From positions 832-64,831 of the IMG/VR virus record IMGVR_UViG_3300031998_000080: 64,000 nucleotides of DNA; one strand, given 5' to 3'. Below, one piece after another: positions 27,218-43,297 of the stretch. This DNA is from a virus. Its lineage: Duplodnaviria > Caudoviricetes. Under the pieces are notes generated by a model. That model had not been told where the DNA came from. It saw only the letters and a list, made by a program, of their open reading frames with translations, and searched no databases. The position numbers and the translations under genes were made by a program. Each line of letters starts with the position of its first letter. Within the stretch, counting starts at the first letter, position 1.

Positions 27218-30200
27218 ATGCCTTCGGATAAGAAAGGGAGTATCTTTCTCCAGTACCAGAACGGGACGAGCAAGTCCTTGTCACCCGACGAGTTCGAGAA
27301 AAAGAGAAGCCAGATATACGACAGCGACCCCGGAGTTCGGGCGTCGCATATCTCCCTGTACGACCGCGGGGACGAGGATATAGCGGATGACGACCGCTTC
27401 ATCATCGCGTCCGAGAACGACGAGCCGTTCGAGGTGGACGCAAAGACCTTCAAGGCCAACCGTGACGCACTATACGGCGCCGGATTCAAGAAGCTCAACG
27501 TCCAGAAGGTCCGCCCCGTCAAGTATTTCAGCGAGCAGGGGGACGAGCAGAAGGCTGTCATCAACAACCGAATCAAGGCGATTGAAGAGGCAGAGAGGGA
27601 AACCGACAAGGCCGCACGCGGTGCGTACAAGGAACGGCAGAAGGAAATGGATAAGCGTCCCTGGTGGCAGAAGGCGCTCGGTGCGCTCTCGCAGGCCGAA
27701 CGTGAGTCCAACCCCTATGTCGCAGACTTGAAGAACGCCGGCTCTCCCGACACCTATGAGGGGTGGCTGAACACGGAAGAGCGTGATTCATACGGCGCCG
27801 ACCTGAAGAACTATCAGGCGGCGAAGCGGATGCTCAAGGATGCTCAGGACCTTCAGGGCTCGCTCACGAAGGGCGAGGCGAAGAAGAACGCCGACGCGAA
27901 GGGTTTTGCCGGAAAGGTGCAGAACTTCATCAAGGGTTCCTTGCAGGGGCAGAAGCAGTATGTGATGAACGAGGAGAACTGGAGTGCCCTTCTCGGAATG
28001 GAGAACGCCGGCGCCATGTACGGACTCCAGCAGAAGATAGAGGATATCCTCGGCGACGTCCCCGAGAACGCTTCTGGAGACGACGTGGAGAAGGCTATCA
28101 AGGAAGGTCTCTCTGAGTCCGAGCGTGCGCTGTTCGATTCCGTGCAGGCGAGCGGTGCCGTCTCGGCGGCGCTTGAGGGAGAAATCGCCCCGAGCGTCAA
28201 GGCGGGACAGACGATGGCCATGTCCGAGCGGATGGGGCTTGAGTTCCTTCTGCTCAACGGCGCCGCCGGCGCTGGCGGTCGCACCGCGAAGCGTGCCGTT
28301 ACAAGATACCTCGAGAAGCGTCTCGTCAAGGACGGCCTCGGCAAGTTCGCCACGGGCGTCGCTAAGGGCGCTTCCCGTCTCGTAGGCGAGGAAGCCGGCG
28401 CACTCGTCGGTGGCGCACTCCAGACCGCCCTCGGTCCTTCCAACTATTCCGAGGTTGCGAAGAGCACACAGGAGGCGATGAAGGCGTTTATGTCCTCTCC
28501 CGCCGCCTTCATGGACCCCGAGACGAGAATCAAGTACGGCATCGAAGGCCCGCAGAAGATGGGCGAAATGGTGTGGGACGGCGCCCTTAACATGCTGTTT
28601 GAGAACGCAACCGAGTTTGGTCTCGGTCCCGTGAACAAACTGACGGGCGCAATCGGCAAGGCCGGTTACAAGGGATTCAAGAAACTCGGCTGGGACACCC
28701 TCGCCAACCTCATGTCCCCGCAGGTCAGCGCCTTCCTCAACAGAATGGGCATCCAGTCCCTCGCCGAGGAAACTGGCGAAGAGGTGAACGGCGCAATCAT
28801 CGACTATCTGCGCGGTAACAAGGAAGCAATCAAGGACTTCGCCGACTTGGAGAACATGGGCGTCCTCATGGCGTCCTTCATCCCGACCATCGGCGTCGGC
28901 GCGGGCGTCTCCGCAGTCCAGCGCGGTGTCGTGAACAACAGATACAACAAAGCGTACGAGGCGTACAAGGACTACCTCATCGACGAGAGGGGCATGTCCG
29001 AGGAAGATGCGGACAAGATTGCGTCCTCCGTCAAGGGAGAGAATCCCGAGGAACTCGGACGCAAGGCGGCCGTCCTTCTCAACGCCGTCGGCAACGGAAA
29101 CTCGCAGGGCAAGGACGTGGAGGGTCAGCTCATCCTCGACCTTCTCACCGCCGCGAGAGACCGCAACGCCGCACACGGCGCGGACCAGATCCGCCGTGAG
29201 GACGAACACGAGAAGGAGAGGGAGGAACTCTACGACAGGACCGGCAGAAAGCAGTTCTGGAGAACGAGGGAGGCCGAGCTCACCGACGAGGGCGGCACCC
29301 CGTACACGGGCGAGGAGGAATATGTGGACTACCTCACCACGGGCGGGGAGAACAACCTCTTCATCCGCAAGGAGAACTCCGACGGAAGCCTCGACACCGT
29401 GGACGAGAACGGGAACGAACGCACTCTCTCCGCTCAGGAAGTAGAGCAGGGACTGAAGGACGGGACCTTCGGCGCACGCAGAAGCATGTCCGTGGAGGAC
29501 TACCTCGACCTCCGCAACGGGGTGAAGAAAGACGCCGAGTGGAATGTTTCAAGAGAGCGCGTCTCCGCTATGGGCGCATACGAGGAAGGTCTCCAGTTCG
29601 GGGACGGTGCGTCGCACGATGACGTGTACATGACCAACCTTAACGCCAACGAAGCGCGGAACAACGCCGTCGCCCTCGGCGTGGACGAGGCGGCGCTCGA
29701 CTCCTCTCCCGAGGAAATAGCGAGAATGGCCTTCGACGAGAGGCAGGAGGGGAACCTCGAACTGGCAGACGCACTCTCCGCATACGCCAACGCAAAGGGC
29801 GCACAGCAGGGTCTGTACGACGGTTATATGGAGACCGCCACCAACCGCGCCACCGTGGCTACCGACGCCGCCATGAACGGGGCGGTCCTCAACGACGGAA
29901 CGGTCATCACCGCCAACCTCGGCGACTCTCCCGTGTATATCACCTCGGACGACGTGAACGTGGCGAGGGACGGAAGCGTGTCCGTCATCGGCGGTACACC
30001 GAAGTCTATGGTCATGGTCCGGCTCATGGACGGCACGTCCGTCCCCGTGCCGGCGTCAGACCTCTCCCGCGCGACCAAGACGCAGGCCGAGTCTTTCCGG
30101 CGCGACATGATAGACTGGTCGGTGTTCCAGGCCGAGGACCAGTACTACCAGATGGCGAACACCGTCAGCCCCGAGGGTAAGACGGCGGCGCTCGCCCCGT

Positions 30201-33200
30201 ACGTCAATCACACCATCCTCATCGAGGACCCCGAGACGGGGGACGTCAGTTCCGTAACCGTCCTCGGGGTGAACAGAAACACGGGAATGGTCACTGTGAA
30301 GGACGCAACCGGCAACGGCCCTTCCCGCTCTATCTCGGCAGAACTGCTCTACGACACGGCGCAGAAGGACGAGCAGGGCAACATTTCCCTCGACGTCACC
30401 TCTGCCGATAACAAGGTACAGCAGGCGCCGCAGGGACAGCAGGCACCCGCACCGCAGACACAGCAACCCGTTCAGGGAACGCAGGCGCAGAATCCCGCGG
30501 ACATTCAGGGCACCACGCAGACCATCATCATTGACGGAGAGCCCGTGGACGTGTTCGTCGAGCAGGCGGACAACGATTCCGTCCTATTCTCCTACGAGAA
30601 CATGAACGGGGAGACTGTGAACGGGAACATGAGCCCAGACGAGTTCCGTCAGGCGATGCAGGGAACGCAGACTCCTACACCGGCACCTGCCCCTGCGCCC
30701 ACCCCCACTCCCGAGCCGGCACCGGCCCAGGAACCCGTAGCGGAAACCGCGCCCGCCGCCACCGAAAGCGGAATCCCCCTCGACGAGAAAACTGGAGAAC
30801 CCATTTACGATGCGGAAGGAATCACTCCCGAACAGGCATACGACGACATTTACGGACGCTTCGGCGAGGACACGTCCGACGCCGACTCCTTTGTCGTGGA
30901 ACAGTCCGAGGCGGCAGACAAGGCGCTTGCGAGGGCGCAGAGGGCGGTCCTCAAGGCTGACGCCGAGAAGGCAGAGATAGACAAGTGGAAGCGCAATCCG
31001 GGCGAGGGTCTCAACGCCTTTGCCAAACGGAAGGAGGACGCCAAAGCAGAGGTGGACAAGAAAACGGCCAAGTACCGCGACGAACTACCCGAACTCCAGC
31101 GCAAGTCCGACTTCTGGAAGGAGATCAAGGAGGTCGCCGACGAGAACATAGCCGAAGCCAAGAAGGAAGCCGAACGGCAGAAACTCATCGAGCAGTACGG
31201 CGTGGACCCCCGCGGATTCAACCTCACACCGCAGACTATGGAGGAGGCGCTTGCGAACGACCTCGCAGGACTGTTCCGCTCGGGACAGAAACTCAAGCTC
31301 GGCTCGGTGCTCGACCTCGTCGGCTGGGACAAGCGGAAGGACCTCCGCAAGAACGGCTACGGCTTCGTGCTGTCGAACAAGACCGATGCCGTCCCCGTGG
31401 ACAAGTTCGTCATGGGCGTGGCCGATGACTGGCCCGGGTATATCTCCGACGAGCAGGATGCCATCAACATGGTCGGCGACCTGCTGATGAGCCACACCCG
31501 CGGAGAACTCGGTCAGCTCATCTTCAACAACCGGCTCGAAGCGGCGAGACGGCAGGCAGAGAACGAGGAAACGCCGGCAGAAGCACCCGCCACTCCCGAG
31601 GTGCCCGTGGCTGAAACACCTGAAACTCCCGTGGAGGAAACCACCGAAGTCCCCGTCGCCGAGACTCAGACCGAAGAGACCGCCGAGGAACCCGCAACCG
31701 AAGAAGCGCTCGAGGACCTGCCGGAGGACCTTCCCGAAGCAGAAGAGGAAGCTGAGACTGAAACCGAAACCGCAACGGAAGAAGAGCAGGAAGAAGAACA
31801 ACCCGAGCCCGAACAGCAGGCTCAAACCGAGGAAGAAGCACCCGAAAACAATGCCCCGAATCAGGAGGAAATGGGGCAGGAAAACGAGGCGCCCGCTTCC
31901 GAAACTCAAAAAGAATCAGTAACTTCGCAGAAGGAGGGGGAGAACGAGGCCGAGCAGGAACTGACCGAGGAAGAAATACGTAACTCCGGCTATCCCGACC
32001 CCGACATCATAGATTCCGCAGTAGACTATATCAACGGAGAAAAGGGGTTTGCGGAGACCCTTGCCTATCAACAAGTAAAGGACTATGTTAGAACTAACGG
32101 TAGAACAACTGAACAAACTGGCAGAAATGCCGGTGAAGCACAGCTGGATGGCAGACCTGTTCAAACTCCCGGGATGGGCGCAGAACGAAGTGGAGGAGAA
32201 ACTGTGTCAGTGGGTGGAGAAGGAAACGGGGAAGGGACTCCTGGCACAATGGGCGCTTCGGACAGCGGGGTACTTTCTGGAGAGACCGGGGCTCAAGCAA
32301 CTGGCGAAAACGGACAGCGTACTCGCAAGGGCGCTGTCGGAAGTCGGGACGCCGGACGACGCGGTGGAACTGATGAATCAGGACTACAACTGGCTGATGA
32401 CGCCGGCGGACAAAGCGTCGATGAAGGACGTACTGGAGAGACTGATAAGCGGGGAACTGAAGCCGGATCAATTGACATTGACGCCCTCGGAGGAGAGTTA
32501 GAAGGTCTCCTTGACGAGTTCAACAGCACCCTTCCGTCCGTCACCCGTCAGGTGAACGGAGTCGGAAGGACGCTGTATGCGAACGCACCCGAAGGAATCG
32601 CGGAAAGAGACAGGAACAGCGGAAAGCTCTCCCGAAAGAGACCCAAGAAGCAGACCGCGTCCATTTCGCTCGACGGCATGACGCCGAAACAGCAGGCGCT
32701 GGCGGCGAAGATTCTCTTCTCTTCCGCAAAACTCGGCTACGCATACGCAAAGACCGAGGGACTTACCACCTTCAACGATTTCCGCAGGTGGTTCAAGTCC
32801 AAGTTCGGCGACGCCGTGATGAAGGGGCTCAACTATGACGAGAGTTCCCTCGACGCCTTCATCGGAGAGGTCTGGAATACAAAACTGAACATCGAGGGGA
32901 AGCGCCTTCCCCTCTCTGGACATTCTTCCGAAATCCACGACCTTGAAATCAGGGATGAGCGGGATATCTCGGTAGAGGAACGTATTGCAAGACAGCAGAG
33001 GGCGAACAAGAAGGGTGTCGCCGTAATCCGCGGAAGCCGTAAGAACATAGCGGAAAGCGTACCAATCCTCACTCCCGGACAATGGGACGACCTCGTAGCC
33101 ATCGAGCGTCAGTTCTTCGACGAATCCCATAACGATTACGACCACGCATACGGAAAGGGTATGCTCGTCACGAACGGAACGGGAACGGGTAAGACCTTCA

Positions 33201-36200
33201 CGGGCCTCGGGACAATCAAGCGTTTCATCGACGAGGGCAAGGGACGCATCCTCGTTGTCGCACCTGCTTCCATGAAGAAGGAGTGGTCCGACAAGGCGAA
33301 GATGCTCGGCATCAAACTCAGCGTCCTTGAGAACACGAAGGATAAGGGAGAGGGTGCTATCGTCACCTCCTACGAGAATTTCCGAATGAACAAGGCCCTC
33401 TACGAGGACACGTTCGACCTCGTTGTCTACGACGAGTGCCAGAACATCATCGAGAACCAGCAGGGCGAGGAGACATTGGCTTTCACGGCGCACAAGCGCA
33501 TCGCCAATAAGGACATCGAAAATGCGGAGGAACGCCTTGCGAGCAACACCGAACTCGGGAAGCGGCGTTCTGAACTCGAAGCAAGGGTGCGTAGCCTGAA
33601 CACAGAGCGCAAGAAACCCAAGCCGAACAAGGCGAAGGGACAGACAAAGGACGAGCGCATCGCGGAAATCGACATAGAGAAGTCCATGCTTGAAGCGGAA
33701 ATCCAAAGCCTCACGGCTCAGATTGACGCTATCAAGCCGCAGTTCCGAGACGAAGCCGAGAAGGCCGTCAAGCGCACGAAGGTCCTGATGCTCTCTGCGA
33801 CCCCGTTCAACACCATAGCGAATCTGCGATACGGCGCCGGATTCGTGTTCAACTACCCGCAGGTGTTCAAGTCCGACGGCACAGAAGTCACCGACGAGGG
33901 ACAGAAGGAAAGCGCGTTCTGGACGGAGTGGTTCCGTGGCGATCAGCCGATGGAACAGCTGGAGGTGGAGTTCGGCGACCATCTGCTCGACGAGCTCGAG
34001 ACCTGCTACTTCCGCGAACTGGAGAACGGCTACGACTATTCCCGTGAACACCCCGACGTGTCTGGAATGATAATGGCCACTCGGTTCAATCAGGCTATGG
34101 ATGCACTGCACGGGCAGAAATACAAGCCCCTGCTCGATAATGCGGGATTCATTGACAAGCCTCAGTGGACCAGCCTTCTCTATGAGACGATGAAGGTCTC
34201 CGCCATGCGTGACCGGCTCAAGGAACACCTTGCCGCCGGACGCAAGATTGTCATCTTCCATGACCGTCTGCACCCCACGCAGTCCTCGAAGGAGAATCTT
34301 CCGCCCGTTGGCCCGCCGTTCCAGACGGTCCTCGACGTAAACCTCATGGCGAAGAACGCGCCGATAGCGCTCATCGCAGACTTCAAGCGGGATTTCGCCG
34401 ACGTCCTCAAGTGGGAGGCCGGTCTCGACTACCGTCCCGTGAACGAGCAGGTCATCGACTTCTTTGCAACCGATGAGGACCGTGCGAAATATGCCGCCGA
34501 ACGGCAGAAGCACGCTAAGGAAATCGAGGAATGGCAGAAGGAGTTGGAGACGTATCTCCGCAACCATCCCGACATGACCGACGAGGAACTGGAGGACGAC
34601 AATGACTTCCAGAAGATTCTCAAGAAACGCCCGAAGGGAACACAGCTCGAAGCGGAGTCCGTAGCCGTCTACAACGGCGAATGCACCCCGAAAGAGAAGG
34701 AGACCGCGAAGGCGCAGTTCAACGATGACAACAGTAAGGTCAAGATTATCTGCGTCACCACCCGTTCCGGCGGTGCGGGACTATCCCTGCACGACACGAC
34801 GGGCGTACATCAGAGGGTTATGATACAGACGGCCCTCCCGTTCTCTCCGATAGGATTCATCCAGGCGGAGGGTCGTACGTTCCGCTGGGGTAACAGAAGT
34901 AATGCAATCTTCGAGTACCCCCGTCTCGGTATCGAACATGAAGTGCGTGTGTTCGCCATGTCGTTCAATGCGAAGGCGGAGACCGTGGAGAACATCGCGC
35001 ACGGATTCCGTGGAAGGGGTCTCAAGGATTCCATTATGACGGGATTCTATGAGAACTCCGGCAACGTGCCGATTGACGGCGAGGGCATCGGCGGTGTGGA
35101 GAGAGACAGGCGCGGAAGCACCCTCACGGGAATGGCGAAGGCGAAGCATGATTACGAGGTCGCCCAGCGCAAGGGATTCAAGCCCGGCGATAAGTCTATC
35201 CCCGAGCCGATAGGTTTCAGCATCGCAACGTGGGCGCAGGCTACGAGCGGTGATACCGCACTTGTTCCGTTCGCGGGACGTGGAAGTATCGCACGTTACG
35301 TCCCCACCGGCATCACGCTCGGTGTAATGGAGACCGACCCGTCCTTGCAGACAGACCTGCTGTGCACCGCCGGACGCCCCGAACTGAAACTCCGCGAAGG
35401 TTTGTTCGGAGAACTGAATCCAATCAATAAGGCCGACGTGGTCCTGCTTGACGGCAACTACGACGAAATGACGGTAGACCCTATCGGTTCCATGAGAAAG
35501 GGCTTTTCTCACCTCTCCGAGGGTGGCCGTATGATTGCGATTATCCCCGACAAGTACAATGCGACCGCGGAACTCGGTGCGCTCGCTAAGGACGGCGCCC
35601 TGACACGCATGATTATCGGTGTCGGGAAGGGTGTCCTGGACGGTAACAACGAGCCGATGGACATTGTCATCGTGGACAAGGTCACGCGCAAGGAACTCCG
35701 AAACAACGCGCCGGCCGCTATAATCAACGACCTTACGAATCTCACGAAGGAACAGCTGTTCGACCAGCTCGAGAACATCAAGGTCCCCGAGCGAATCGTG
35801 GACGTTCAAGCTATCAAGTCAAAGAAGGTCAAGGCCGTTCTGACGGAACTGAGAAAGAACAAACTCATCGGTAAAGCCGAACTCCAGCGCGAGGAAACCG
35901 ATAACCCGCAGGTCTATATCTATATGACCGAAAGGTTCGGAAAGGGCATGAACCAGTCGAGATTCAGCCTCGAGTCATGCGATAACTCCTATTGGATTGA
36001 CACCTCCAAGTGGCAGTACATCCGCTTCTCGAAAGCGGAAAAGGTCAATCAGGATAATCCGCTCATCCAGAACTATCAATGGCTGAAGGAGACCCTTGCC
36101 CTCACGGACGGCGAGTTCCGCAAAAAGACAAGGACGTACGATGCAAGGCAGGAGGACGTGGAGGCTCTGAAGGACCTCTACCGCTCGTACATGAAACTCA

Positions 36201-39200
36201 TCCGCGGTTTGTTCAATCTGACTGAAGCGCAGATTAACCGAGTGGCGCAGGGTCTCAACCCGAACATCAGCGCGTCCGACATTGAGACTCTCGACGGGTA
36301 CGGTCAGTTGCGCGAGAAGTTCGAAGCCGCCAACCACGGCGACGAGGAACGTCAGGACATGTACGACCGTGTTGCGGACGTCGCCGAGAAGATTGGACTT
36401 GTCATCGGTGTGGAGTCGATGGGCAGGGGTTTCGCCGGCGGTTACAACAACCGTTCCAACTCGTTGAAGATTAACCGGCTCACCTGGGGACCGATGAACG
36501 ACGACGAGCGTGCTACAACCCTGCTTCACGAGTTCATCCACTCTGTTACCAACTATGCGCTGAAGAGTGCTGAGGAGGGCGTCCCTAACGCAAAGGACGG
36601 GCTGTACGATTCCGCCAACCTTGCGAGGGATATCTTCCGGCAGATTACTAAGGGCACTCCAGAGGACGTCGCCCCCCTGCGTGGTTACAGCCTCGAGAAC
36701 GTGGACGAAATGATGGCCGAAATGGCCAATCCGAAAATCCGCGACCGCTACAAGAACCGCCGCATGTGGGTGGATCACTCTGGTTCCAGTCCGAAGGTGT
36801 ACGGATTCCAAGTGGACGGTGCCGAGGAAACTACCGCGTGGGCTTTGCTCAACGAGGCTCTTGACGGCATTCTCAAGAACTTTGACAAGTCTCTCTTCGA
36901 CCGCTTCATCGGGCGTAGCAACGACTTTATGTGGGATTTGTCCAAGCCCTACGTCCGCGAGGCAGACAAGCCGAAGGGCAGGGTTTGGGTGAGCGAGGAC
37001 GGAGACGTTCTCGGAAACGAGGTTGTTCCAGAGACCGACACTGTTGATGACGACTTGTCGGACGAGGAAAAAACAATTAAGGAGAACGCAATCGCCGAAG
37101 GGACCTTTATGAAGGCCCCGAACGGGAATCCGACAAACCTGAGCGAGAAGCAGTGGCTTCAGGTCAGGACCGCCGCGTTCAAGAATTGGTTTGGTAATTG
37201 GGACATCGCCGCCATGACCACTCCAATCCTTAAAAGCGAGGGAACTTTCACGAATCTTTCCGAAGCGGAGGATTGGGCAAAGAAGAACTTGCAGGGTAAG
37301 GGAAGGACTAACCGTTTCACGGGGGATTATATCTCGATAGGCAGGCGTTCCGTCAAGGAAATGCTCAACGAGAAAGCCCTGAAGAACAGTGACTCTATCA
37401 ACGCTCATCTGTCCGCACTCCGCTCTGTCCTCGACTTCATTGAGACGGGAATCCCCGCGGAAACGCACAGAGACGTACACGGTAGGGACTTCGATGTAAT
37501 GAGGCTCTATAACGCCATCGAAATTGACGGCGAGCTGTATCGGGTCAAATCAACTGTGAAGAAGGTCCGCTCGGGAGACAGATACTATACCTACGAGGTA
37601 CAAGAAATGGAACTGATGGAAGAACGCCGGGCGAACCGGGAGTCGGAGGGGCAGAGCCCAGTCACGACCAATAGTCCCATCAATTCCATTACTGGTGCAA
37701 AGTTACTAAAAGGCGTCAAAAAAACAAACTCTTCCGAGGAAATTCTTGATTATTCCAAGATTGTGGACGAGAACGGCGAGCCGAGAGTCCTTTATCATGG
37801 GACGAAGCGCCAGTTCTGGTCGTTCGACCCGTCTCAGGCGAGAAAATACACTGACGGGATGAACTTCTTTTCTCTCGACAGAGAGTTCTCCGAGTCGTGG
37901 ATTAATCGTGATGATGACAGACAGCGTTCGCCCGAAGATAACAAGCGTCTTGAGGATGCCTGGCAGAAGTCAAGAGAGCACAAGGCGGAAATAGCAAGAC
38001 AGCTTGCAAAGACATATGGCAGGGACTACATTGACTCGGAAGAGTGGAAGGAAGCCGAGAAGGGATTTGAGCAATGGGAACGGGACAATCTCGGACTTGA
38101 CGGAATGACCGTCAGGGAGGCGAGGATGGATCTCGGGAAACGACTCCTTCCTGTCTTTATCAATTCACGAAACCCGTATATCCCCACCGAGCGATACGAT
38201 ATCGACGGGAAGCAGATGCTAATCGACCTCGGCGTCATGGAGAATCCAGACGCTATGGCTGACATGTACGCAAGGGGCGGTGCGTATATCTACTACGAGA
38301 GAAAGAGGGTTACTGACGAACTGAAGCGCAGGGGTTATGACTCCATCTACCTCTCTGAGGACGTTTGGTCAGACCCGTCAAAGAATCTGCGTACGCTCGG
38401 CGTGTGGGATGCAAACAGAATCAAGTCCGCTACCGATAACAATGGTGAGTTCAATCCAGAGAACAACGATATCCGCTACCGTGAGGAAACCGACGCCGAT
38501 ACCATCGAGCGTCTTGATTCCGAGCCGACCGTCACCGCCTACCGTGCGATGCAGTTCGTCCCGAATCCGAACGGAGACGTGGAATACGACCTCGGGGACG
38601 GCAGGGGAGTACAGAGGGGATATCTCTATCCTCCCATGTCCGCAGTCGTGGAAGGCGAGTGGAGACCGCCCGTGCCGTTCAACAAGTGGGAACGTTCCGT
38701 CGAACGTCCCGACCTCGTGGACGAGAAGGGCAGATTCAAGCTCGACAAGGGTAACAAGAAGTCGCTGAACGCGGCGTACAACCCCTATTTCCATTCGTCC
38801 GGCACGATGCTGAACGACCAGTTCAGCGAGGCGCAGGACCGTGGCAACCTCGTCGTGGTGGAGGTGCAGATTCCAGAACGGGAGGTGTCCGAGCGGAACA
38901 TGAATCCGTACAAGGCCGAGAAGGCGAAGGACGCCGTCGGCAAGCTCGAATGGAAGGCCGGCCCGATTCAGGGACAGCTGACCGGCACCCGTCCCGTCTA
39001 TCTCTCCCGCTGGGACAAGCCCGTCCGTATCGTTCCCGTAAGCGAGGTTGCGGACAACGTGGCGGCGCAGATCGCCGGCCAGGTCGAAACGATGCCCACC
39101 AACGTGGTGTGGCCGCAACTCCGTTCCGAACTCAAGAAGCGGGGCGTCAAGTTCGTGGAGACCGACAATCAGGGCTATCTCGTCGGCGGGGAGAACGAAG

Positions 39201-42200
39201 GCAAGTCTTATTCCTCCGTGTACGGCAAGAAAAAGACCTCGAAGGAACAGAGGGAAGCGAAGAAGGCCCGGGACGAGAGGGAAGCCGCAAAGGAACGCAT
39301 CCGTCTCGCCGAGGTGAAAGCCACGAACGAGACCCTCGACCGCATGGGTCAGGAACTCGGAGTCAAGATTAACAAGGTCGGGCGTTCCGAAATGCCCGCC
39401 GGACACAAGACCGCGAAGGGCTACTACAACCCCAAGACGGGCGAAATGACCATCTGCATGGACAACGTGACCGACGAGCGGGACGCCATCGCAACCGTCA
39501 TCCACGAGACCGTAGGCCACAAGGGACTGCGCGAGCTCTTCGGTCCCCGTTTCCGTGAGGCTATGGTCAATATCTACGCATCCCTCGACGCGAAGGGCAG
39601 GGCGTGGGTGAACGGGTATATCGCCCGCCACGGCCTCGGCTTCGGAGACGAGGGCATCGCTCACGGCATGGAGGAATACATGGCGCACCTCGCCGAGAAC
39701 GGGGACTTCCGCAACAAGACCGTCTGGGAGAAGATTAAGGAAATCCTCGGACGCATCGTGGACGCCGTGTTCGGCACCGACGGCTTCGTGTTCACGGACA
39801 ACGAGTTGAACTACATTCTCCGTGCGTCCTACGAGCACCTCAAGAATCCGAACTGGCTCGACACAATCCCCGGCTGGGCGAAGGACACCCTGATGAAGCG
39901 TGCGCTCGGCATCAACGAGACCGGCCCGAACAGACCCACCGACCCCGAAGGTCCGGGGATGGGTCTCCGTTTCCGTGACGGGGAGACCGGCATCGCCAAC
40001 GAGGACTACAACGCCGACATGAAGCTCTCGAAGAACGCCGCCATCATGGAGAACCAGAACGCCGACCTCCCCGTGAAAATCGGATATGAGAAAATCCTGA
40101 AGGAGAAGTACGGAGACAAGTGGCTCGAGAAGATGAAGGACCTCCGTGACGACGAGGACTACCTCACCCGTCACAACCTCGCAAGCAGTCGCGCGGAGAC
40201 AGAGGCCCACAACTTCGAACTGTTCAGGTTCACCCCGCTCATGGAACAGGTGCGGGCCGTCCAGAAGAAACTGGTCGGTGACAAGTCCAACAAGCAGTCC
40301 CGCGAGGACGCATACGAGCGAATCCTCGACTATATCTACGCCGTCTCCGGCCTCGAGAGAAACGAGTACAAGAACAACGAGATAGAAGCGGAGAAGCAGG
40401 ACGCCCTGAAGGCTCTCGATGACGCCCTCGCACAGAAGATTGACGAGATCAACAACAGCGGAAAGACCGAGGGCGAGAAGGCTGACGCCATCGACCGCGC
40501 GAAGAAGTCCTATGACAAGAAACGTGCGGACACCGTAGTGCGCTACGACGCCATGAAGAAGGACTGGTCTGGTCTGACCTCGCTCACGGGACACCCGTCT
40601 AACGAATGGATGTTCGCCGAAGCGGACGCCCGCGCCCTCGTCGATTCGTTCAAGAAGGCGGTCGGGGATGACGCCATGCTCGACGCCCTCTGGGACCGCA
40701 TCCGCGACTGCACCGACTTCTCGCTTGAGCACGCATACAAGTACGGACTGCTCACACGGGAGGAATTCGAGAGACTGCACGGCACTGCGACCCAGCCGAG
40801 AATGTGGCAGTACTACGTCCCTCTGCGTGGCTTCAATGAGGAAACCGCCGAGGAAACCTTCGACTATTCCCGATTCCTCAGCCCGTCCAATGGCGGTGCG
40901 GTCGTGAAGGAAATGAAGGGACGTTGGACCGAAGCCGACAACCCGCTCGCCAACATACTGAACATAGCCGAGAGCGAAATCGTCCAGGGCAACGACAACT
41001 GGGCGAAGCAGGCCCTCTACCGCTTCGTGCTGAACGCCGGCGAGAACAGTCTGCTCACGCAGGTAGAGCCGTGGTACACCAAGAATCCCGCAACTGGCGA
41101 GTGGTCGCTCACGGAACCCTATGAGGGCGAGACCCTCGAGGACTTCGAGAAGCGTATGCAGATGCTTCGCGCCCTCGACGAGCCTCTCGCAAAGAAGGGA
41201 CGCAGGGGACTGAAGCTCGACAAGATAATGGCGAACAAGGCCCACCGCAACGAGCACATGATCCGTCTCAAGGTGGGCGGCATGGACAAGATGATTTGGG
41301 TGAACGGCAACCCCGCTCTCGCAAAGGCGGTGTCGGGCATGAGCAGGGCGCAGAACATGAAGTGGTTGCGCCGCGCCAGCCGTGTCCTCTCCAACCTCTT
41401 CACGACCTACTCGCTCGACTTCTCCGTCAAGAACCTAATCCGAGACACCATCTATTCGAGGTCGGCCCTTCTCGTCAAGGAGGACCGCGCATACCGACGT
41501 CAGTACGAGAAGAACTGGTGGAACAACTTTGGCTACGGCGCCTTCGCCTTCCCGATGATTCGGCTGGCGGCGCAGTGGGAGAGCGGTAAACTCCAGAGCA
41601 AGCCGGAAAATCTCCGCACCAAGAAGGAACAGCAGTTCATCGACTTTATGACCGACGGCGGACAGACGGGCTACACCATCATCAACTCCGTCAATGAAAT
41701 CAAGAAGTCACTCGAGCGTTCGATGCGCCGTGCGGGAGAAAAGACCGGCAAGGTCACGATTCCGATTCTCGGTTGGTACGCCGAGGGCGTCAAGACGCTC
41801 AACGAGGCGTTCGAACTCCTGACCCGATTCACGGCGTACCAGACCTCCCGCGACATGGGACGCTCGGGACAGCGGTCCGCTTCCGACGCGAAGGAAATCT
41901 CCGTGAACTTCAACCGCCGTGGCGCTCAGTCCGGCGAGGGCGTGTGGGGTAACATAGCCGCCTACCTCGGTGCGACGCATTACTTCTACAATGCGGGCGT
42001 GCAGGGCTTCGACAACTTCCTCCGTCTGTTCAAGACCAACCCCGTCAAGATGGGGACCATCACCGGCGGGCTCGTCGTAATGGGTATGGTAACGCCGTTG
42101 CTCAACTCCATGCTCGCCGGCGCCTTCGGTGGCGGAGACGGAGGGGACGACGACTGGTACTGGAACCTGCCCGAATGGGTGAGACGGAACAATATCGTCA

Positions 42201-43297
42201 TCGGAACGGGACGCTGGTATCTCGCAATCCCTCTCGCAGTGGAGTTCCGCGCACCCTACGGTCTCGGAGACATAGCGAGCTCGGCGTTCTGTTACCACAA
42301 GACCCCGACCAGAGGCTCGGGCGACGTCCCGTTCGGCGACCTCGCGCTTGACTTCATCAACACGGCGGCGAACATTCTCCCCGTCAATCCAGTCGAAGGT
42401 TACACCCCGTCGAACAGCAACATCGGCGACGCACTCATCCGCGCCGTGGCGCCCGACGCAGGCATGTTCTTCGTGGACTGGGCGACCAACAGAGACTACA
42501 CGGGACGCCCGCTCTGGAAGGAAAACCCGTTCAACGAGACCGTTCCGAAGTCCCAGGGCGCATACGCGAGCACTCCGAAGGGGATCGTGGCCGCATGCCA
42601 GAAGATAGCCGAGGTCACGGGCGGACGGATAGATATCGCCCCGGGCCTCGTCCGCGACGCCATGAACAACTACGGAGGCGGTTTCTTCCGTGTGGCCGAG
42701 GACGCATCGAAGGTGCTCACGGGCATCTTCGACAACGACCCCGAGCGTCCGTTCCGCTGGGACAACGTCCCGTTCTTCAGCGGATTCACGGGACATATCG
42801 ACGAGGATCGCATGAACTCCTACGCCGTGAACGCACTGAGGGAGTACGAGGAACTCTCCGAGGAGAACGTGAAACGCCTGAACGCAGTCTGCAACACAAG
42901 CGACCTCACCGCCGCTATGGTCTACGGCGACACCCCCGTCCCCGAGCAGTACGAGTCGAAGGTGAACGTGTGGAAAACCCTGCACCCGAAGGCTTACGAA
43001 CTCGGGCGCATGTACCGCGAGGGCATGAACAACACCTATAAGATGAAGCAGTACGTCCGCGGTGCGAAGGCCGGCCAGTGGCACAAGTCCAACGAGGTCG
43101 AGCAGTACGGCGTCACAGCGCTCAAGAAGCAGTGGAAAACCCTGCGGGACGAGTGGGCGGCCATGCCGGAGAACACCCTCGGCGAGAGGTCTCTCAAGGC
43201 CGAGAAACTGCTCGAGGTACAGCAGGCGTGGCACACCTACTACGACGCCGAGGGCAACCTCGCCGACCGGCTGATGAAATATGAATATGGCAAGTAG
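27218..43297 (+). CDS. Giant polyvalent internal virion protein (SF2/strawberry-notch-like helicase, degenerate adenine MTase, two HExxH metallopeptidase-like, LPD3-like, ART-like, LPD38-like domains)
   Basis: GTGTGKT (~33180), YDECQN (~33430), GLSLHDTT...QAEGRTFR (~34780), LVPFAGRG (~35260), HEFIH (36527), FKNWFGNW (~37180), NGEPRVLYHGT (~37775), HETVGH (39503). Confidence 0.85.
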   Translation: MPSDKKGSIFLQYQNGTSKSLSPDEFEKKRSQIYDSDPGVRASHISLYDRGDEDIADDDRFIIASENDEPFEVDAKTFKANRDALYGAGFKKLNVQKVRPVKYFSEQGDEQKAVINNRIKAIEEAERETDKAARGAYKERQKEMDKRPWWQKALGALSQAERESNPYVADLKNAGSPDTYEGWLNTEERDSYGADLKNYQAAKRMLKDAQDLQGSLTKGEAKKNADAKGFAGKVQNFIKGSLQGQKQYVMNEENWSALLGMENAGAMYGLQQKIEDILGDVPENASGDDVEKAIKEGLSESERALFDSVQASGAVSAALEGEIAPSVKAGQTMAMSERMGLEFLLLNGAAGAGGRTAKRAVTRYLEKRLVKDGLGKFATGVAKGASRLVGEEAGALVGGALQTALGPSNYSEVAKSTQEAMKAFMSSPAAFMDPETRIKYGIEGPQKMGEMVWDGALNMLFENATEFGLGPVNKLTGAIGKAGYKGFKKLGWDTLANLMSPQVSAFLNRMGIQSLAEETGEEVNGAIIDYLRGNKEAIKDFADLENMGVLMASFIPTIGVGAGVSAVQRGVVNNRYNKAYEAYKDYLIDERGMSEEDADKIASSVKGENPEELGRKAAVLLNAVGNGNSQGKDVEGQLILDLLTAARDRNAAHGADQIRREDEHEKEREELYDRTGRKQFWRTREAELTDEGGTPYTGEEEYVDYLTTGGENNLFIRKENSDGSLDTVDENGNERTLSAQEVEQGLKDGTFGARRSMSVEDYLDLRNGVKKDAEWNVSRERVSAMGAYEEGLQFGDGASHDDVYMTNLNANEARNNAVALGVDEAALDSSPEEIARMAFDERQEGNLELADALSAYANAKGAQQGLYDGYMETATNRATVATDAAMNGAVLNDGTVITANLGDSPVYITSDDVNVARDGSVSVIGGTPKSMVMVRLMDGTSVPVPASDLSRATKTQAESFRRDMIDWSVFQAEDQYYQMANTVSPEGKTAALAPYVNHTILIEDPETGDVSSVTVLGVNRNTGMVTVKDATGNGPSRSISAELLYDTAQKDEQGNISLDVTSADNKVQQAPQGQQAPAPQTQQPVQGTQAQNPADIQGTTQTIIIDGEPVDVFVEQADNDSVLFSYENMNGETVNGNMSPDEFRQAMQGTQTPTPAPAPAPTPTPEPAPAQEPVAETAPAATESGIPLDEKTGEPIYDAEGITPEQAYDDIYGRFGEDTSDADSFVVEQSEAADKALARAQRAVLKADAEKAEIDKWKRNPGEGLNAFAKRKEDAKAEVDKKTAKYRDELPELQRKSDFWKEIKEVADENIAEAKKEAERQKLIEQYGVDPRGFNLTPQTMEEALANDLAGLFRSGQKLKLGSVLDLVGWDKRKDLRKNGYGFVLSNKTDAVPVDKFVMGVADDWPGYISDEQDAINMVGDLLMSHTRGELGQLIFNNRLEAARRQAENEETPAEAPATPEVPVAETPETPVEETTEVPVAETQTEETAEEPATEEALEDLPEDLPEAEEEAETETETATEEEQEEEQPEPEQQAQTEEEAPENNAPNQEEMGQENEAPASETQKESVTSQKEGENEAEQELTEEEIRNSGYPDPDIIDSAVDYINGEKGFAETLAYQQVKDYVRTNGRTTEQTGRNAGEAQLDGRPVQTPGMGAERSGGETVSVGGEGNGEGTPGTMGASDSGVLSGETGAQATGENGQRTRKGAVGSRDAGRRGGTDESGLQLADDAGGQSVDEGRTGETDKRGTEAGSIDIDALGGELEGLLDEFNSTLPSVTRQVNGVGRTLYANAPEGIAERDRNSGKLSRKRPKKQTASISLDGMTPKQQALAAKILFSSAKLGYAYAKTEGLTTFNDFRRWFKSKFGDAVMKGLNYDESSLDAFIGEVWNTKLNIEGKRLPLSGHSSEIHDLEIRDERDISVEERIARQQRANKKGVAVIRGSRKNIAESVPILTPGQWDDLVAIERQFFDESHNDYDHAYGKGMLVTNGTGTGKTFTGLGTIKRFIDEGKGRILVVAPASMKKEWSDKAKMLGIKLSVLENTKDKGEGAIVTSYENFRMNKALYEDTFDLVVYDECQNIIENQQGEETLAFTAHKRIANKDIENAEERLASNTELGKRRSELEARVRSLNTERKKPKPNKAKGQTKDERIAEIDIEKSMLEAEIQSLTAQIDAIKPQFRDEAEKAVKRTKVLMLSATPFNTIANLRYGAGFVFNYPQVFKSDGTEVTDEGQKESAFWTEWFRGDQPMEQLEVEFGDHLLDELETCYFRELENGYDYSREHPDVSGMIMATRFNQAMDALHGQKYKPLLDNAGFIDKPQWTSLLYETMKVSAMRDRLKEHLAAGRKIVIFHDRLHPTQSSKENLPPVGPPFQTVLDVNLMAKNAPIALIADFKRDFADVLKWEAGLDYRPVNEQVIDFFATDEDRAKYAAERQKHAKEIEEWQKELETYLRNHPDMTDEELEDDNDFQKILKKRPKGTQLEAESVAVYNGECTPKEKETAKAQFNDDNSKVKIICVTTRSGGAGLSLHDTTGVHQRVMIQTALPFSPIGFIQAEGRTFRWGNRSNAIFEYPRLGIEHEVRVFAMSFNAKAETVENIAHGFRGRGLKDSIMTGFYENSGNVPIDGEGIGGVERDRRGSTLTGMAKAKHDYEVAQRKGFKPGDKSIPEPIGFSIATWAQATSGDTALVPFAGRGSIARYVPTGITLGVMETDPSLQTDLLCTAGRPELKLREGLFGELNPINKADVVLLDGNYDEMTVDPIGSMRKGFSHLSEGGRMIAIIPDKYNATAELGALAKDGALTRMIIGVGKGVLDGNNEPMDIVIVDKVTRKELRNNAPAAIINDLTNLTKEQLFDQLENIKVPERIVDVQAIKSKKVKAVLTELRKNKLIGKAELQREETDNPQVYIYMTERFGKGMNQSRFSLESCDNSYWIDTSKWQYIRFSKAEKVNQDNPLIQNYQWLKETLALTDGEFRKKTRTYDARQEDVEALKDLYRSYMKLIRGLFNLTEAQINRVAQGLNPNISASDIETLDGYGQLREKFEAANHGDEERQDMYDRVADVAEKIGLVIGVESMGRGFAGGYNNRSNSLKINRLTWGPMNDDERATTLLHEFIHSVTNYALKSAEEGVPNAKDGLYDSANLARDIFRQITKGTPEDVAPLRGYSLENVDEMMAEMANPKIRDRYKNRRMWVDHSGSSPKVYGFQVDGAEETTAWALLNEALDGILKNFDKSLFDRFIGRSNDFMWDLSKPYVREADKPKGRVWVSEDGDVLGNEVVPETDTVDDDLSDEEKTIKENAIAEGTFMKAPNGNPTNLSEKQWLQVRTAAFKNWFGNWDIAAMTTPILKSEGTFTNLSEAEDWAKKNLQGKGRTNRFTGDYISIGRRSVKEMLNEKALKNSDSINAHLSALRSVLDFIETGIPAETHRDVHGRDFDVMRLYNAIEIDGELYRVKSTVKKVRSGDRYYTYEVQEMELMEERRANRESEGQSPVTTNSPINSITGAKLLKGVKKTNSSEEILDYSKIVDENGEPRVLYHGTKRQFWSFDPSQARKYTDGMNFFSLDREFSESWINRDDDRQRSPEDNKRLEDAWQKSREHKAEIARQLAKTYGRDYIDSEEWKEAEKGFEQWERDNLGLDGMTVREARMDLGKRLLPVFINSRNPYIPTERYDIDGKQMLIDLGVMENPDAMADMYARGGAYIYYERKRVTDELKRRGYDSIYLSEDVWSDPSKNLRTLGVWDANRIKSATDNNGEFNPENNDIRYREETDADTIERLDSEPTVTAYRAMQFVPNPNGDVEYDLGDGRGVQRGYLYPPMSAVVEGEWRPPVPFNKWERSVERPDLVDEKGRFKLDKGNKKSLNAAYNPYFHSSGTMLNDQFSEAQDRGNLVVVEVQIPEREVSERNMNPYKAEKAKDAVGKLEWKAGPIQGQLTGTRPVYLSRWDKPVRIVPVSEVADNVAAQIAGQVETMPTNVVWPQLRSELKKRGVKFVETDNQGYLVGGENEGKSYSSVYGKKKTSKEQREAKKARDEREAAKERIRLAEVKATNETLDRMGQELGVKINKVGRSEMPAGHKTAKGYYNPKTGEMTICMDNVTDERDAIATVIHETVGHKGLRELFGPRFREAMVNIYASLDAKGRAWVNGYIARHGLGFGDEGIAHGMEEYMAHLAENGDFRNKTVWEKIKEILGRIVDAVFGTDGFVFTDNELNYILRASYEHLKNPNWLDTIPGWAKDTLMKRALGINETGPNRPTDPEGPGMGLRFRDGETGIANEDYNADMKLSKNAAIMENQNADLPVKIGYEKILKEKYGDKWLEKMKDLRDDEDYLTRHNLASSRAETEAHNFELFRFTPLMEQVRAVQKKLVGDKSNKQSREDAYERILDYIYAVSGLERNEYKNNEIEAEKQDALKALDDALAQKIDEINNSGKTEGEKADAIDRAKKSYDKKRADTVVRYDAMKKDWSGLTSLTGHPSNEWMFAEADARALVDSFKKAVGDDAMLDALWDRIRDCTDFSLEHAYKYGLLTREEFERLHGTATQPRMWQYYVPLRGFNEETAEETFDYSRFLSPSNGGAVVKEMKGRWTEADNPLANILNIAESEIVQGNDNWAKQALYRFVLNAGENSLLTQVEPWYTKNPATGEWSLTEPYEGETLEDFEKRMQMLRALDEPLAKKGRRGLKLDKIMANKAHRNEHMIRLKVGGMDKMIWVNGNPALAKAVSGMSRAQNMKWLRRASRVLSNLFTTYSLDFSVKNLIRDTIYSRSALLVKEDRAYRRQYEKNWWNNFGYGAFAFPMIRLAAQWESGKLQSKPENLRTKKEQQFIDFMTDGGQTGYTIINSVNEIKKSLERSMRRAGEKTGKVTIPILGWYAEGVKTLNEAFELLTRFTAYQTSRDMGRSGQRSASDAKEISVNFNRRGAQSGEGVWGNIAAYLGATHYFYNAGVQGFDNFLRLFKTNPVKMGTITGGLVVMGMVTPLLNSMLAGAFGGGDGGDDDWYWNLPEWVRRNNIVIGTGRWYLAIPLAVEFRAPYGLGDIASSAFCYHKTPTRGSGDVPFGDLALDFINTAANILPVNPVEGYTPSNSNIGDALIRAVAPDAGMFFVDWATNRDYTGRPLWKENPFNETVPKSQGAYASTPKGIVAACQKIAEVTGGRIDIAPGLVRDAMNNYGGGFFRVAEDASKVLTGIFDNDPERPFRWDNVPFFSGFTGHIDEDRMNSYAVNALREYEELSEENVKRLNAVCNTSDLTAAMVYGDTPVPEQYESKVNVWKTLHPKAYELGRMYREGMNNTYKMKQYVRGAKAGQWHKSNEVEQYGVTALKKQWKTLRDEWAAMPENTLGERSLKAEKLLEVQQAWHTYYDAEGNLADRLMKYEYGK
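32085..32501 (+). CDS. Candidate overprinted gene (138 aa) in the +1 frame inside the giant gene
   Basis: Amphipathic-helix-like, Trp-containing sequence, while the host frame is a G/E/R/T-rich disordered linker; A-rich sequence before the ATG. Confidence 0.55.
   Translation: MLELTVEQLNKLAEMPVKHSWMADLFKLPGWAQNEVEEKLCQWVEKETGKGLLAQWALRTAGYFLERPGLKQLAKTDSVLARALSEVGTPDDAVELMNQDYNWLMTPADKASMKDVLERLISGELKPDQLTLTPSEES

Follow-up and report, generated by a model that had tools for sequence, protein, structure and literature searches.

The question raised by this locus is whether a small open reading frame lying out of frame inside a giant phage gene encodes a protein of its own, and if so how one set of bases serves two products. 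The window, a viral DNA stretch of 64,000 nucleotides (positions 832 to 64,831 of record IMGVR_UViG_3300031998_000080), contains at 32085-32501 an ORF that an initial annotation, made from the letters alone, had described as a gene overprinted in the +1 frame of a 5,359-aa frame. The ORF is present as claimed. From the comparison of related loci we conclude that it is very probably a genuine selected gene nested in the +1 frame, with about 414 nt being dual-coding. To our knowledge, prokaryotic viruses have few long same-strand overlaps backed by solid evidence of selection on two frames, and gene callers are designed to leave out overlapping genes of this kind.

The giant gene and the frame inside it

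The features of the locus are as follows.

27218..43297, plus strand: giant host gene (from the ORF list), 5,359 aa, a polyvalent (DarB-like) protein
31961..32125, plus strand: small helical module of the giant protein just 5' of the tether (AlphaFold2 residues 21-75, pLDDT about 73-93)
32085..32501, plus strand: nested gene, ATG start, 138 aa, stop included, +1 frame of the giant gene
32135..32470, plus strand: giant-frame tether, disordered and rich in Gly, Ser, Arg and Asp (AlphaFold2 pLDDT <50, without secondary structure)
32960..33442, plus strand: first RecA-like domain of the helicase module, with Q motif, Walker A and motifs Ia and II

The product of 27218..43297 carries several conflict-related domains, LPD domains among them, on one giant polypeptide, as polyvalent proteins do. 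Pfam matches above cut-offs were obtained for ResIII/Helicase_C (an SF2 helicase), LPD3, ART-PolyVal and LPD38, and the helicase part resembled 'DarB-like antirestriction' proteins of GenBank phages by tblastn. The Walker A motif of the helicase, TNGTGTGKT, is encoded at 33170-33196. In the tether, Gly accounts for 19.6% and Ser for 11.3% of the residues, and hydrophobic residues are nearly absent. The nested ORF is offset by one from the giant frame ((32085-27218) mod 3 = 1), which stays open throughout it, and the nested ATG falls in the last residues (..K-D-Y-V-R) of the small helical module, itself conserved among closer relatives. The proposal that the ends of the ORF coincide with those of the linker was roughly right: pLDDT in the giant frame was below 50 at nt 32135-32470, while AlphaFold2 placed short helices in the first ~14 and the last ~8 giant-frame codons of the overlap.

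Relatives were sampled as 80 viral loci, picked only through the helicase-side domain of the giant frame downstream of the nested ORF. A member of the nested family lay directly upstream of the helicase module in 72 of them, and these 72 were all of the loci fused to upstream sequence; they fall into 32 clusters at 85% identity. The embedded, same-strand, out-of-frame layout of 32085-32501 was found in every one: the nested ORF was in +1 and started with ATG, and the giant frame was free of stops across it and ran in phase into the helicase. When these homologous linkers were checked for stops in the +1 frame, it was likewise open in 72 of 72. The remaining eight loci had a stand-alone helicase gene, with no upstream fusion and without the nested family. 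Whenever upstream modules are joined to this helicase module, the nested arrangement is present without variation.

The nested protein is acidic and all-alpha (pI 4.7, net charge -8) and belongs to a family of small proteins of about 120-190 aa with a median net charge of -11. AlphaFold2 gave pLDDT 94.8 and pTM 0.86 from a shallow alignment, in agreement with the suggestion that the product is folded and helical; it has five Trp, not the four first counted. An exhaustive phmmer search of 1.84 billion representatives returned 17 matches, each a small protein (120-184 aa) whose alignment begins at its own Met, and none an in-frame piece of a giant protein, and a profile search added 31 further members. 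The family is conserved to about 20-25% identity, with start and stop kept. It has no match in Pfam, PHROGs, NCBIfam or PADLOC, and in a Pfam profile search none of 18 members matched PF14198 (TnpV) at E <= 1. Nothing was obtained from a profile search of PDB sequences with the family, from tblastn of three members against GenBank phages, or from tblastn of one member against plasmids. Structure searches with the nested protein gave nothing clear by Foldseek (best E 1.6 in the PDB and 0.33 in BFVD) or by VIA-align wide (best Z 4.1), and no usable match in the ESM Atlas. These blank searches do not prove that the fold is new. An antisense ORF of 125 aa (32094..32471), codon-aligned to the nested frame and open in relative locus L001 too, was also observed and is taken as a by-product of nested-frame codon usage.

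Members of the family also occur outside giant genes. Free-standing copies were found near an integrase in Draconibacterium aestuarii, in a Bacteroidales MAG, and beside an XRE HTH gene and hsdM (HsdM_N) on a single 1.3-kb contig, and one subfamily (P0062) is fused to an XRE-type HTH. Such relatives, adjoining or fused to HTH regulators and also found with a type I restriction-modification gene, suggest that the protein may have another function of its own. A profile search of 400 further genomes of the Draconibacterium phylum did not recover the family.

Predicted docking on the helicase

The small protein had been suggested to be a partner of the adjacent helicase, nuclease or ART modules. 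The helicase part of this suggestion gained support from a controlled complex prediction, whereas nothing points to the nuclease or to ART. With the first RecA-like domain, the nested protein gave an ipSAE of 0.62 (runs 0.56, 0.64 and 0.62), the best control reaching 0.01. In the calibration, 58 of 80 solved complexes and 2 of 110 mismatched pairs came up to this mark, counts that are rough with our own alignments. At least 84% of the contacts were common to the three runs, and the pLDDT of the partner was at least 86. The predicted interface comprises, on the helicase side, the Q motif, Walker A and motifs Ia and II, that is, the ATP-binding face, and on the nested side E37, kept in 38 of the 44 members, and D100, which is D or E in every one of the 44. 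The docking was modelled with the first RecA-like domain alone, and because the second RecA-like domain is absent from the model, the conserved cleft is artificially exposed and could attract a helical partner.

According to this model, the helicase whose coding sequence follows directly downstream in the giant frame would be bound by the nested product at its first RecA-like domain, on the ATP-binding face. Inherited and transcribed together with the motor, the product would regulate it during synthesis of the giant protein and its loading into virions, either as an inhibitor (a 'safety catch') or as a chaperone. We put this role forward tentatively, as a possibility that the modelling suggests. 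Stand-alone helicases manage without the small protein, and so a role in the fusion or the tether fits at least as well as a role in helicase chemistry.

Alternatively, the nested protein could be an independent anti-defence or regulatory effector that rides in the giant gene and does not bind the helicase; examples would be an acidic mimic of DNA or protein, or a protein working with HTH regulators in the vicinity of restriction-modification systems. The strongly acidic character of the family (pI 4.7, median net charge -11), the free-standing copies that persist without any giant gene, the XRE-type HTH fusion in one subfamily, the member beside HTH and HsdM_N genes, and the stand-alone helicases lacking a nested protein would all suit such an effector. 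However, its position directly upstream of the helicase module is fixed in 72 of 72 loci, the predicted docking is specific (0.62, controls at most 0.01), the restriction-modification neighbourhood amounts to that single 1.3-kb contig, and no match to PADLOC, Pfam or NCBIfam was obtained. We consider an independent effector somewhat unlikely.

Initiation and selection in the overlap

One further feature concerns the start of the nested gene.

32060..32100, plus strand: putative internal initiation region, with an invariant ATG (32085-32087) in an A-rich, unstructured patch

The nested ATG was kept in all 33 dereplicated loci, including its T, which lies at a synonymous site of the giant frame. 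The fraction of A was 0.48 at positions -15 to -1 of this ATG against 0.33 further upstream, and GC in the start region was 0.31 against 0.50. The minimum free energy over 41 nt at the nested start averaged -2.2 kcal/mol against -6.2 +/- 1.3 kcal/mol, making it the least structured of 49 positions. Starts that are AT-rich, unstructured and free of a Shine-Dalgarno sequence are typical of Bacteroidota. The start patch here has these properties, and translation of the small protein probably starts independently, by internal initiation at this invariant ATG. A sigma-70 promoter scan gave no plus-strand site near the nested ORF, which says little, the host probably being a member of the Bacteroidota. 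Among the matches listed for sequencing runs that hold this sequence there were no RNA runs, the holders being bovine gut DNA metagenomes.

Phages also use frameshifting to obtain two products from one gene. Given this precedent, and the +1 position on the same strand at every locus, the nested domain could be imagined as the alternative C-terminus of a truncated N-terminal giant product arising by a programmed +1 frameshift. Several observations speak against this. The ATG is invariant in the 33 loci, with its T at a giant-synonymous site, and the region around it is AT-rich and unstructured. A stop in the nested frame lies at 32076-32078, two codons upstream of the ATG, and most of seven inspected loci have one within 2-4 codons, so that almost no room is left for a shift site. 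Free-standing copies open at the same Met as the nested ones, and all database homologues are small proteins. A frameshift is highly improbable, and independent internal initiation remains our preferred reading.

By length alone the nested ORF could have arisen by chance: the giant gene contains five more alternative-frame ORFs of 140-148 aa on the same strand. The coding signature, unlike the length, is beyond chance. At one place only in the 16-kb gene, 31838-32618, did the GC3 of the giant frame fall below 0.55; it was 0.37 there, with 0.72 in the nested frame, against 0.77 for the giant frame elsewhere. Substitutions were counted in 14 independent close pairs of loci. In 172 changes the nested codon stayed synonymous while the giant-frame residue was altered, against 38 of the reverse type, although sites of the reverse type were more numerous. 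Frame-specific dN/dS within the overlap was 0.22 for the nested frame (0.08 at giant-synonymous sites) and about 1.35 for the giant frame. In the helicase flank, used as a control, the giant frame had a dN/dS of 0.12, with differences of 0.028, 0.024 and 0.142 at codon positions 1, 2 and 3. Across the 33 loci, nucleotide variability was 0.552, 0.464 and 0.590 at nested positions 1, 2 and 3, and amino-acid identity was higher for the nested frame (28%) than for the giant frame (21%). What the nested frame encodes is a conserved family of acidic all-alpha proteins, about 125-180 aa long, under purifying selection.

The giant frame carries a different mark. T occupied 7% of third positions in the nested frame against 25% outside the overlap. 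When the synonymous codons of the nested frame were resampled, 3-14 giant-frame stops were expected, and none were observed; a stop-free giant frame arose in 0 of 2000 resamplings in 22 of 29 loci, and the probability was at most 0.035 in any of them. The residues of the tether drift neutrally, but selection keeps its frame open, chiefly through a shortage of T at the third positions of nested codons. Both frames are selected, as had been supposed from the sequence of this one locus, where selection on the nested frame with read-through of the giant frame preserved was proposed; dN/dS, stop avoidance and the 72 open loci now back that proposal. The layout recurs in every related phage examined that carries the fusion, and one stretch of DNA therefore appears to encode two proteins.

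The stand-alone helicase genes in eight relatives, together with tether residues under no detectable constraint, could also be accommodated by three separate genes (upstream modules, small gene and helicase), the upstream frame being open across the small gene by happenstance. However, in 72 of 72 loci the giant frame is stop-free against the 3-14 stops expected and runs on in phase to the helicase, and T at nested third positions is down to 7%; an arrangement of three genes is extremely improbable. That the ORF is a chance product of a hydrophilic low-complexity linker, naturally free of +1 stops and yielding no protein, would fit the five comparable ORFs and the rarity with which +1 stops arise from linkers poor in hydrophobic residues, but its probability is practically nil and the comparative data already contradict it, given the conserved family with its start and stop, the nested dN/dS of 0.22, the pLDDT of 94.8 from a shallow alignment, a codon-signature switch unique in the giant gene, annotated free-standing homologues, and loci that are not redundant copies (32 clusters at 85% identity).

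Origin of the overlap and related systems

The term overprinted implies that the small frame was added to the linker. The dual coding stands, but the direction may be reversed. De novo overprinting of the nested frame did not fit the data, as the GC3 of the nested frame is genome-like (0.72 against 0.77) and that of the giant frame atypical (0.37). Nor is the spread of the nested frame the narrower one, the family being present wherever the fusion exists and the helicase occurring unfused as well. Codon usage and this distribution together suggest that the tether reading is the secondary frame. The tether would then have arisen when the upstream modules were fused to the helicase by read-through of the small gene. 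We regard it as an even call that the small gene's frame is the older and that the tether was born in this way. In the Draconibacterium copy, T occupies 10% of third positions against 34.5% in neighbour genes and the -1 frame is stop-free (P < 1/5000), and in relative locus L091, 85% identical to this copy, the gene is nested. Given this avoidance of T and the nested relative, the free-standing copies do not show that the small gene came first. A fuller scenario, in which the tether was born by read-through and an acidic protein of new fold plugs the ATP cleft of the helicase, as an inseparable, co-transcribed 'safety catch' that silences the motor up to packaging or injection of the giant protein, is rather unlikely to hold as a whole.

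The nested family is deeply diverged, with 32 clusters at 85% identity and pairs of members as low as about 20% identical. Its fold is confidently predicted and has no detectable relative, and annotation misses the family since a 16-kb gene covers the same bases. The cost of the overlap is shared, in that one frame keeps its protein sequence and the other keeps only openness and flexibility; the price of this is a measurable codon bias in the nested frame. A small partner predicted on the ATP site of the helicase would offer a testable handle on the control of giant DarB-like polyvalent proteins. The linkers of giant phage and conjugative-element genes appear worth screening for hidden genes.

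In Iyer et al. 2017 (PMC5512222), polyvalent proteins, including P1 DarB-like anti-restriction proteins, are described as carrying many effector domains on linkers in one giant phage polypeptide. The host gene resembles the proteins treated there in its SF2 helicase, ART-PolyVal, LPD3 and LPD38, and a term search of that paper returned no mention of out-of-frame genes inside linkers. In the literature outside subscription journals, no description was found of genes nested in polyvalent-protein linkers. With no Pfam match, the nested family does not belong to the described LPD domains.

Two known overlaps invite comparison. In the spanin genes Rz/Rz1 of phage lambda, Rz1 is a lipoprotein of about 60 aa encoded within a gene of about 150 codons, both being functional proteins that act together. 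The small gene described here is likewise contained completely within a larger phage gene, read from the same strand with a +1 offset. It differs in being a 138-aa soluble acidic helical protein over the disordered tether of a 5,359-codon gene, with no relation in sequence or fold and with an interaction between the partners that is predicted only. In hepatitis B virus, the polymerase spacer, which tolerates nearly any residue, overlaps the surface gene in another frame. That overlap, although partial and found in an animal virus with an unrelated protein, whereas here the small gene is fully nested in a phage gene for a virion/anti-defence protein, is alike in that a flexible spacer shares its bases with a folded protein and selection acts mainly on the folded frame.

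A gene nested in the polyvalent frame

The virus record (IMG/VR, 64.8 kb) carries a giant ORF with Pfam matches to ResIII/Helicase_C, LPD3, ART-PolyVal and LPD38, which, judged by this domain content, is a polyvalent protein. Its helicase part matches GenBank phage proteins annotated 'DarB-like antirestriction'. The ORF listing confirmed the initial annotation's claim of a 138-aa ORF in the +1 frame inside this gene.

ORFs of the giant-gene region (window coordinates)
27218..43297, + strand: giant ORF, 5,359 codons
32085..32501, + strand: nested ORF, 138 codons, ATG start, one base out of step with the giant frame
32498-34567, - strand: antisense ORF, 689 aa, opposite the giant gene
35975-37480, - strand: antisense ORF, 501 aa, opposite the giant gene
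38378-41257, - strand: antisense ORF, 959 aa, opposite the giant gene
41708-43234, - strand: antisense ORF, 508 aa, opposite the giant gene

The length of the nested ORF alone is no evidence, because five further same-strand ORFs of 140-148 aa lie in alternative frames of the giant gene. For the long antisense ORFs (501-959 aa), the GC3-rich codon usage of the giant gene is the most likely explanation. In a sliding scan of the 16-kb gene, giant-frame GC3 fell below 0.55 only at 31838-32618; within the overlap it was 0.37 in the giant and 0.72 in the nested frame, versus 0.77 for the giant frame elsewhere. At 31634-31900, ahead of a small helical module, the giant protein also has a stretch of about 90 residues of extreme Glu/Thr/Pro content (acidic low complexity), a second linker of another type in which the coding signature is not switched.

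Searched exhaustively with phmmer and without a length filter, a set of 1.84 billion cluster representatives yielded 17 matches to the nested protein, with E-values down to 1e-31. All were small proteins (120-184 aa) aligned from their own N-terminal Met, and none was a giant protein containing the nested sequence in frame. The family is diverged, with the common motifs MP-x-HSW, W, LE-x-EA, PEV and D/E. The majority of members were found on short contigs that the giant ORF spans beyond both ends, which probably accounts for their having been called as genes in the first place. AlphaFold2 predicted nine helices (mean pLDDT 94.8, pTM 0.86, from an alignment of only 18 sequences), in line with the folded helical protein proposed earlier, and no sequence-library or fold search gave a functional lead.

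Fused, unfused and free-standing loci

For comparison, 80 viral loci were retrieved solely via the domain that the giant frame encodes downstream of the overlap, so that the nested frame was not selected for. The nested-family profile matched 72 of them, each time directly upstream of that domain, in the +1 frame and with an ATG start, and the giant frame was uninterrupted across the overlap in all 72. These loci form 32 clusters at 85% identity, with pairwise identities down to about 20%. The eight others (L074, L080, L082, L083, L084, L086, L087 and L088) carry the helicase as a gene of its own (about 850 codons, near position 2400-2465 of the contig), which begins where the fusion would be and has unrelated genes upstream. 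They are natural unfused controls, and with the family in 72/72 fused and 0/8 unfused loci, the nested gene therefore goes with the fused versions. Metagenomes added 21 family loci, and in 16 of these the gene is nested in a frame exceeding 2,000 codons. Downstream of the overlap, the giant frame stops inside the helicase region in three of the 72 loci, L018 (~3448), L042 (~3724) and L071 (~2923), which may reflect genuine truncation or faulty assembly. At L092:1348-2874 the host gene is truncated within the helicase-side domain by an opposite-strand serine recombinase (Resolvase + HTH_7), and the nested gene is intact.

Since the window's DNA is present in bovine gut metagenomes, and free-standing homologues occur in Draconibacterium and one Bacteroidales MAG, the phage host is probably a member of Bacteroidota. 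No family member turned up in 400 other sampled genomes of Draconibacterium's phylum, in plasmids or in GenBank phages, where tblastn, suggested as a check for relatives and run with three family members (one for plasmids), gave no match. The Draconibacterium aestuarii copy is a gene by itself, close to a phage integrase, with its giant-frame equivalent closed at both ends. It probably escaped from a giant gene, because it retains the nested signature (T at 10% of third codon positions vs 34.5% in neighbouring genes; a stop-free -1 frame, P < 1/5000) and has an 85%-identical relative nested in a 4,088-codon frame. At this locus (L089:9630-10500, strain Z1-6) the last 10 nt of a 128-aa ORF are shared with the copy, and from ~10399 there follows a reading whose N-terminal motif is similar (..DGEP..NVT..); the two may be small paralogues within an island linked to the integrase. 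The same Draconibacterium genome holds a second, truncated copy of 69 codons with one internal TAG (G001:C45:242132-242338, L113). A more diverged subfamily, with a C-terminal extension of about 50 aa, has normal T at third positions (0.25) and is truly free-standing. One member (L101:1-1355) is divergent from an adjoining XRE-type HTH gene and an hsdM (HsdM_N) fragment, and in another, protein P0062, the domain is fused to a C-terminal HTH_3/antidote-like domain.

Selection and translation start

In 33 dereplicated loci, nucleotide variability was 0.552/0.464/0.590 at nested codon positions 1/2/3, a coding signature for the nested frame and the inverse of one for the giant frame; amino-acid identity in the overlap was 28% in the nested versus 21% in the giant frame. 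Among 14 phylogenetically independent close pairs, 172 changes were silent in the nested frame and altered the giant one, versus only 38 of the opposite kind, despite the more numerous sites for the latter. With the other frame held constant, dN/dS was 0.22 (or 0.08) for the nested and 1.35 for the giant frame. In the helicase flank of the same pairs, which served as control, giant-frame dN/dS was 0.12 and differences clustered at third positions (0.028/0.024/0.142 at positions 1/2/3).

When synonymous codons were redrawn from local usage with the nested protein sequence fixed, 3-14 giant-frame stops per overlap were predicted; not one of 2000 draws was stop-free in 22 of 29 loci, and the stop-free fraction never exceeded 0.035. 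The mechanism is visible: the giant frame is kept open by depletion of T at nested third (giant first) positions, 7% vs 25% at third positions elsewhere. Because of this depletion the giant-frame tether is rich in Gly (19.6%) and Ser (11%); hydrophobic residues are almost absent, and AlphaFold2 left the reading of nt 32135-32470 unstructured (pLDDT < 50). Both the low-complexity linker and the selection on the nested frame with preserved giant read-through, as initially annotated, are thus upheld, and we consider it very probable that 32085..32501 is a real gene and the stretch dual-coding.

The nested ATG is invariant in 33/33 loci, although at the second base of this codon the giant frame could just as well have C in place of T, the change being synonymous there. 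A makes up 48% of the 15 nt upstream, and no Shine-Dalgarno consensus is seen in them in these loci. Folding predictions over 32 loci show RNA structure dipping sharply right at the ATG, where it is weaker than at any other of the 49 positions (mean MFE -2.2 vs -6.2 +/- 1.3 kcal/mol; GC 0.31 vs 0.50). A nested-frame stop two codons upstream in the window, together with free-standing copies starting at the same Met, favours independent internal initiation over frameshifting as the putative route to the protein.

Predicted function, origin and known systems

Because the nested gene keeps to the junction in front of the helicase, binding to that part was modelled, using the 356 residues encoded downstream; the second RecA-like lobe is absent from this construct, which artificially exposes the cleft. 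The complex scored 0.62 (runs 0.56, 0.64, 0.62) versus 0.01 for the best control, with at least 84% of contacts common to the runs and partner pLDDT of at least 86. In a calibration that is rough only, own alignments having been used, 58/80 solved complexes and 2/110 mismatched pairs reached 0.62. The predicted interface comprises the Q motif (L199, Q203), Walker A (T236-T241), motif Ia (P264-S266), Y300 and Q323 (the residue after DEC) of the helicase, and the loop around D100 (D or E in 44/44 members) and E37 (38/44) of the nested protein. The prediction supports binding to the helicase, and the earlier suggestion of a partner for this adjacent module gains to that extent, the binding itself being model-based. 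The best reading, concrete and testable but tentative, is that the product may be a co-inherited regulator of the helicase motor; the main rival, an autonomous acidic effector or regulator, is somewhat less likely.

As to origin, we infer that a small gene was already present and that read-through of it would have joined the upstream modules to the helicase; that a folded protein arose de novo within a linker seems less likely. The fusion scenario is suggested since the codon usage of the nested frame, unlike that of the giant frame, is typical of the genome, the tether sequence is unconstrained, and the helicase also exists unfused. A locus with upstream-module gene, small gene and helicase as three separate genes was not found among those compared.

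Within the reach of a term search, the founding polyvalent-protein paper (Iyer et al. 2017, PMC5512222) makes no mention of genes inside polyvalent linkers. Other literature searches returned no description of genes nested in such linkers. Architecturally, the nested gene matches embedded phage genes, for example Rz1 within Rz. The way the two frames divide the work resembles that in the overlap of the HBV polymerase spacer with S.
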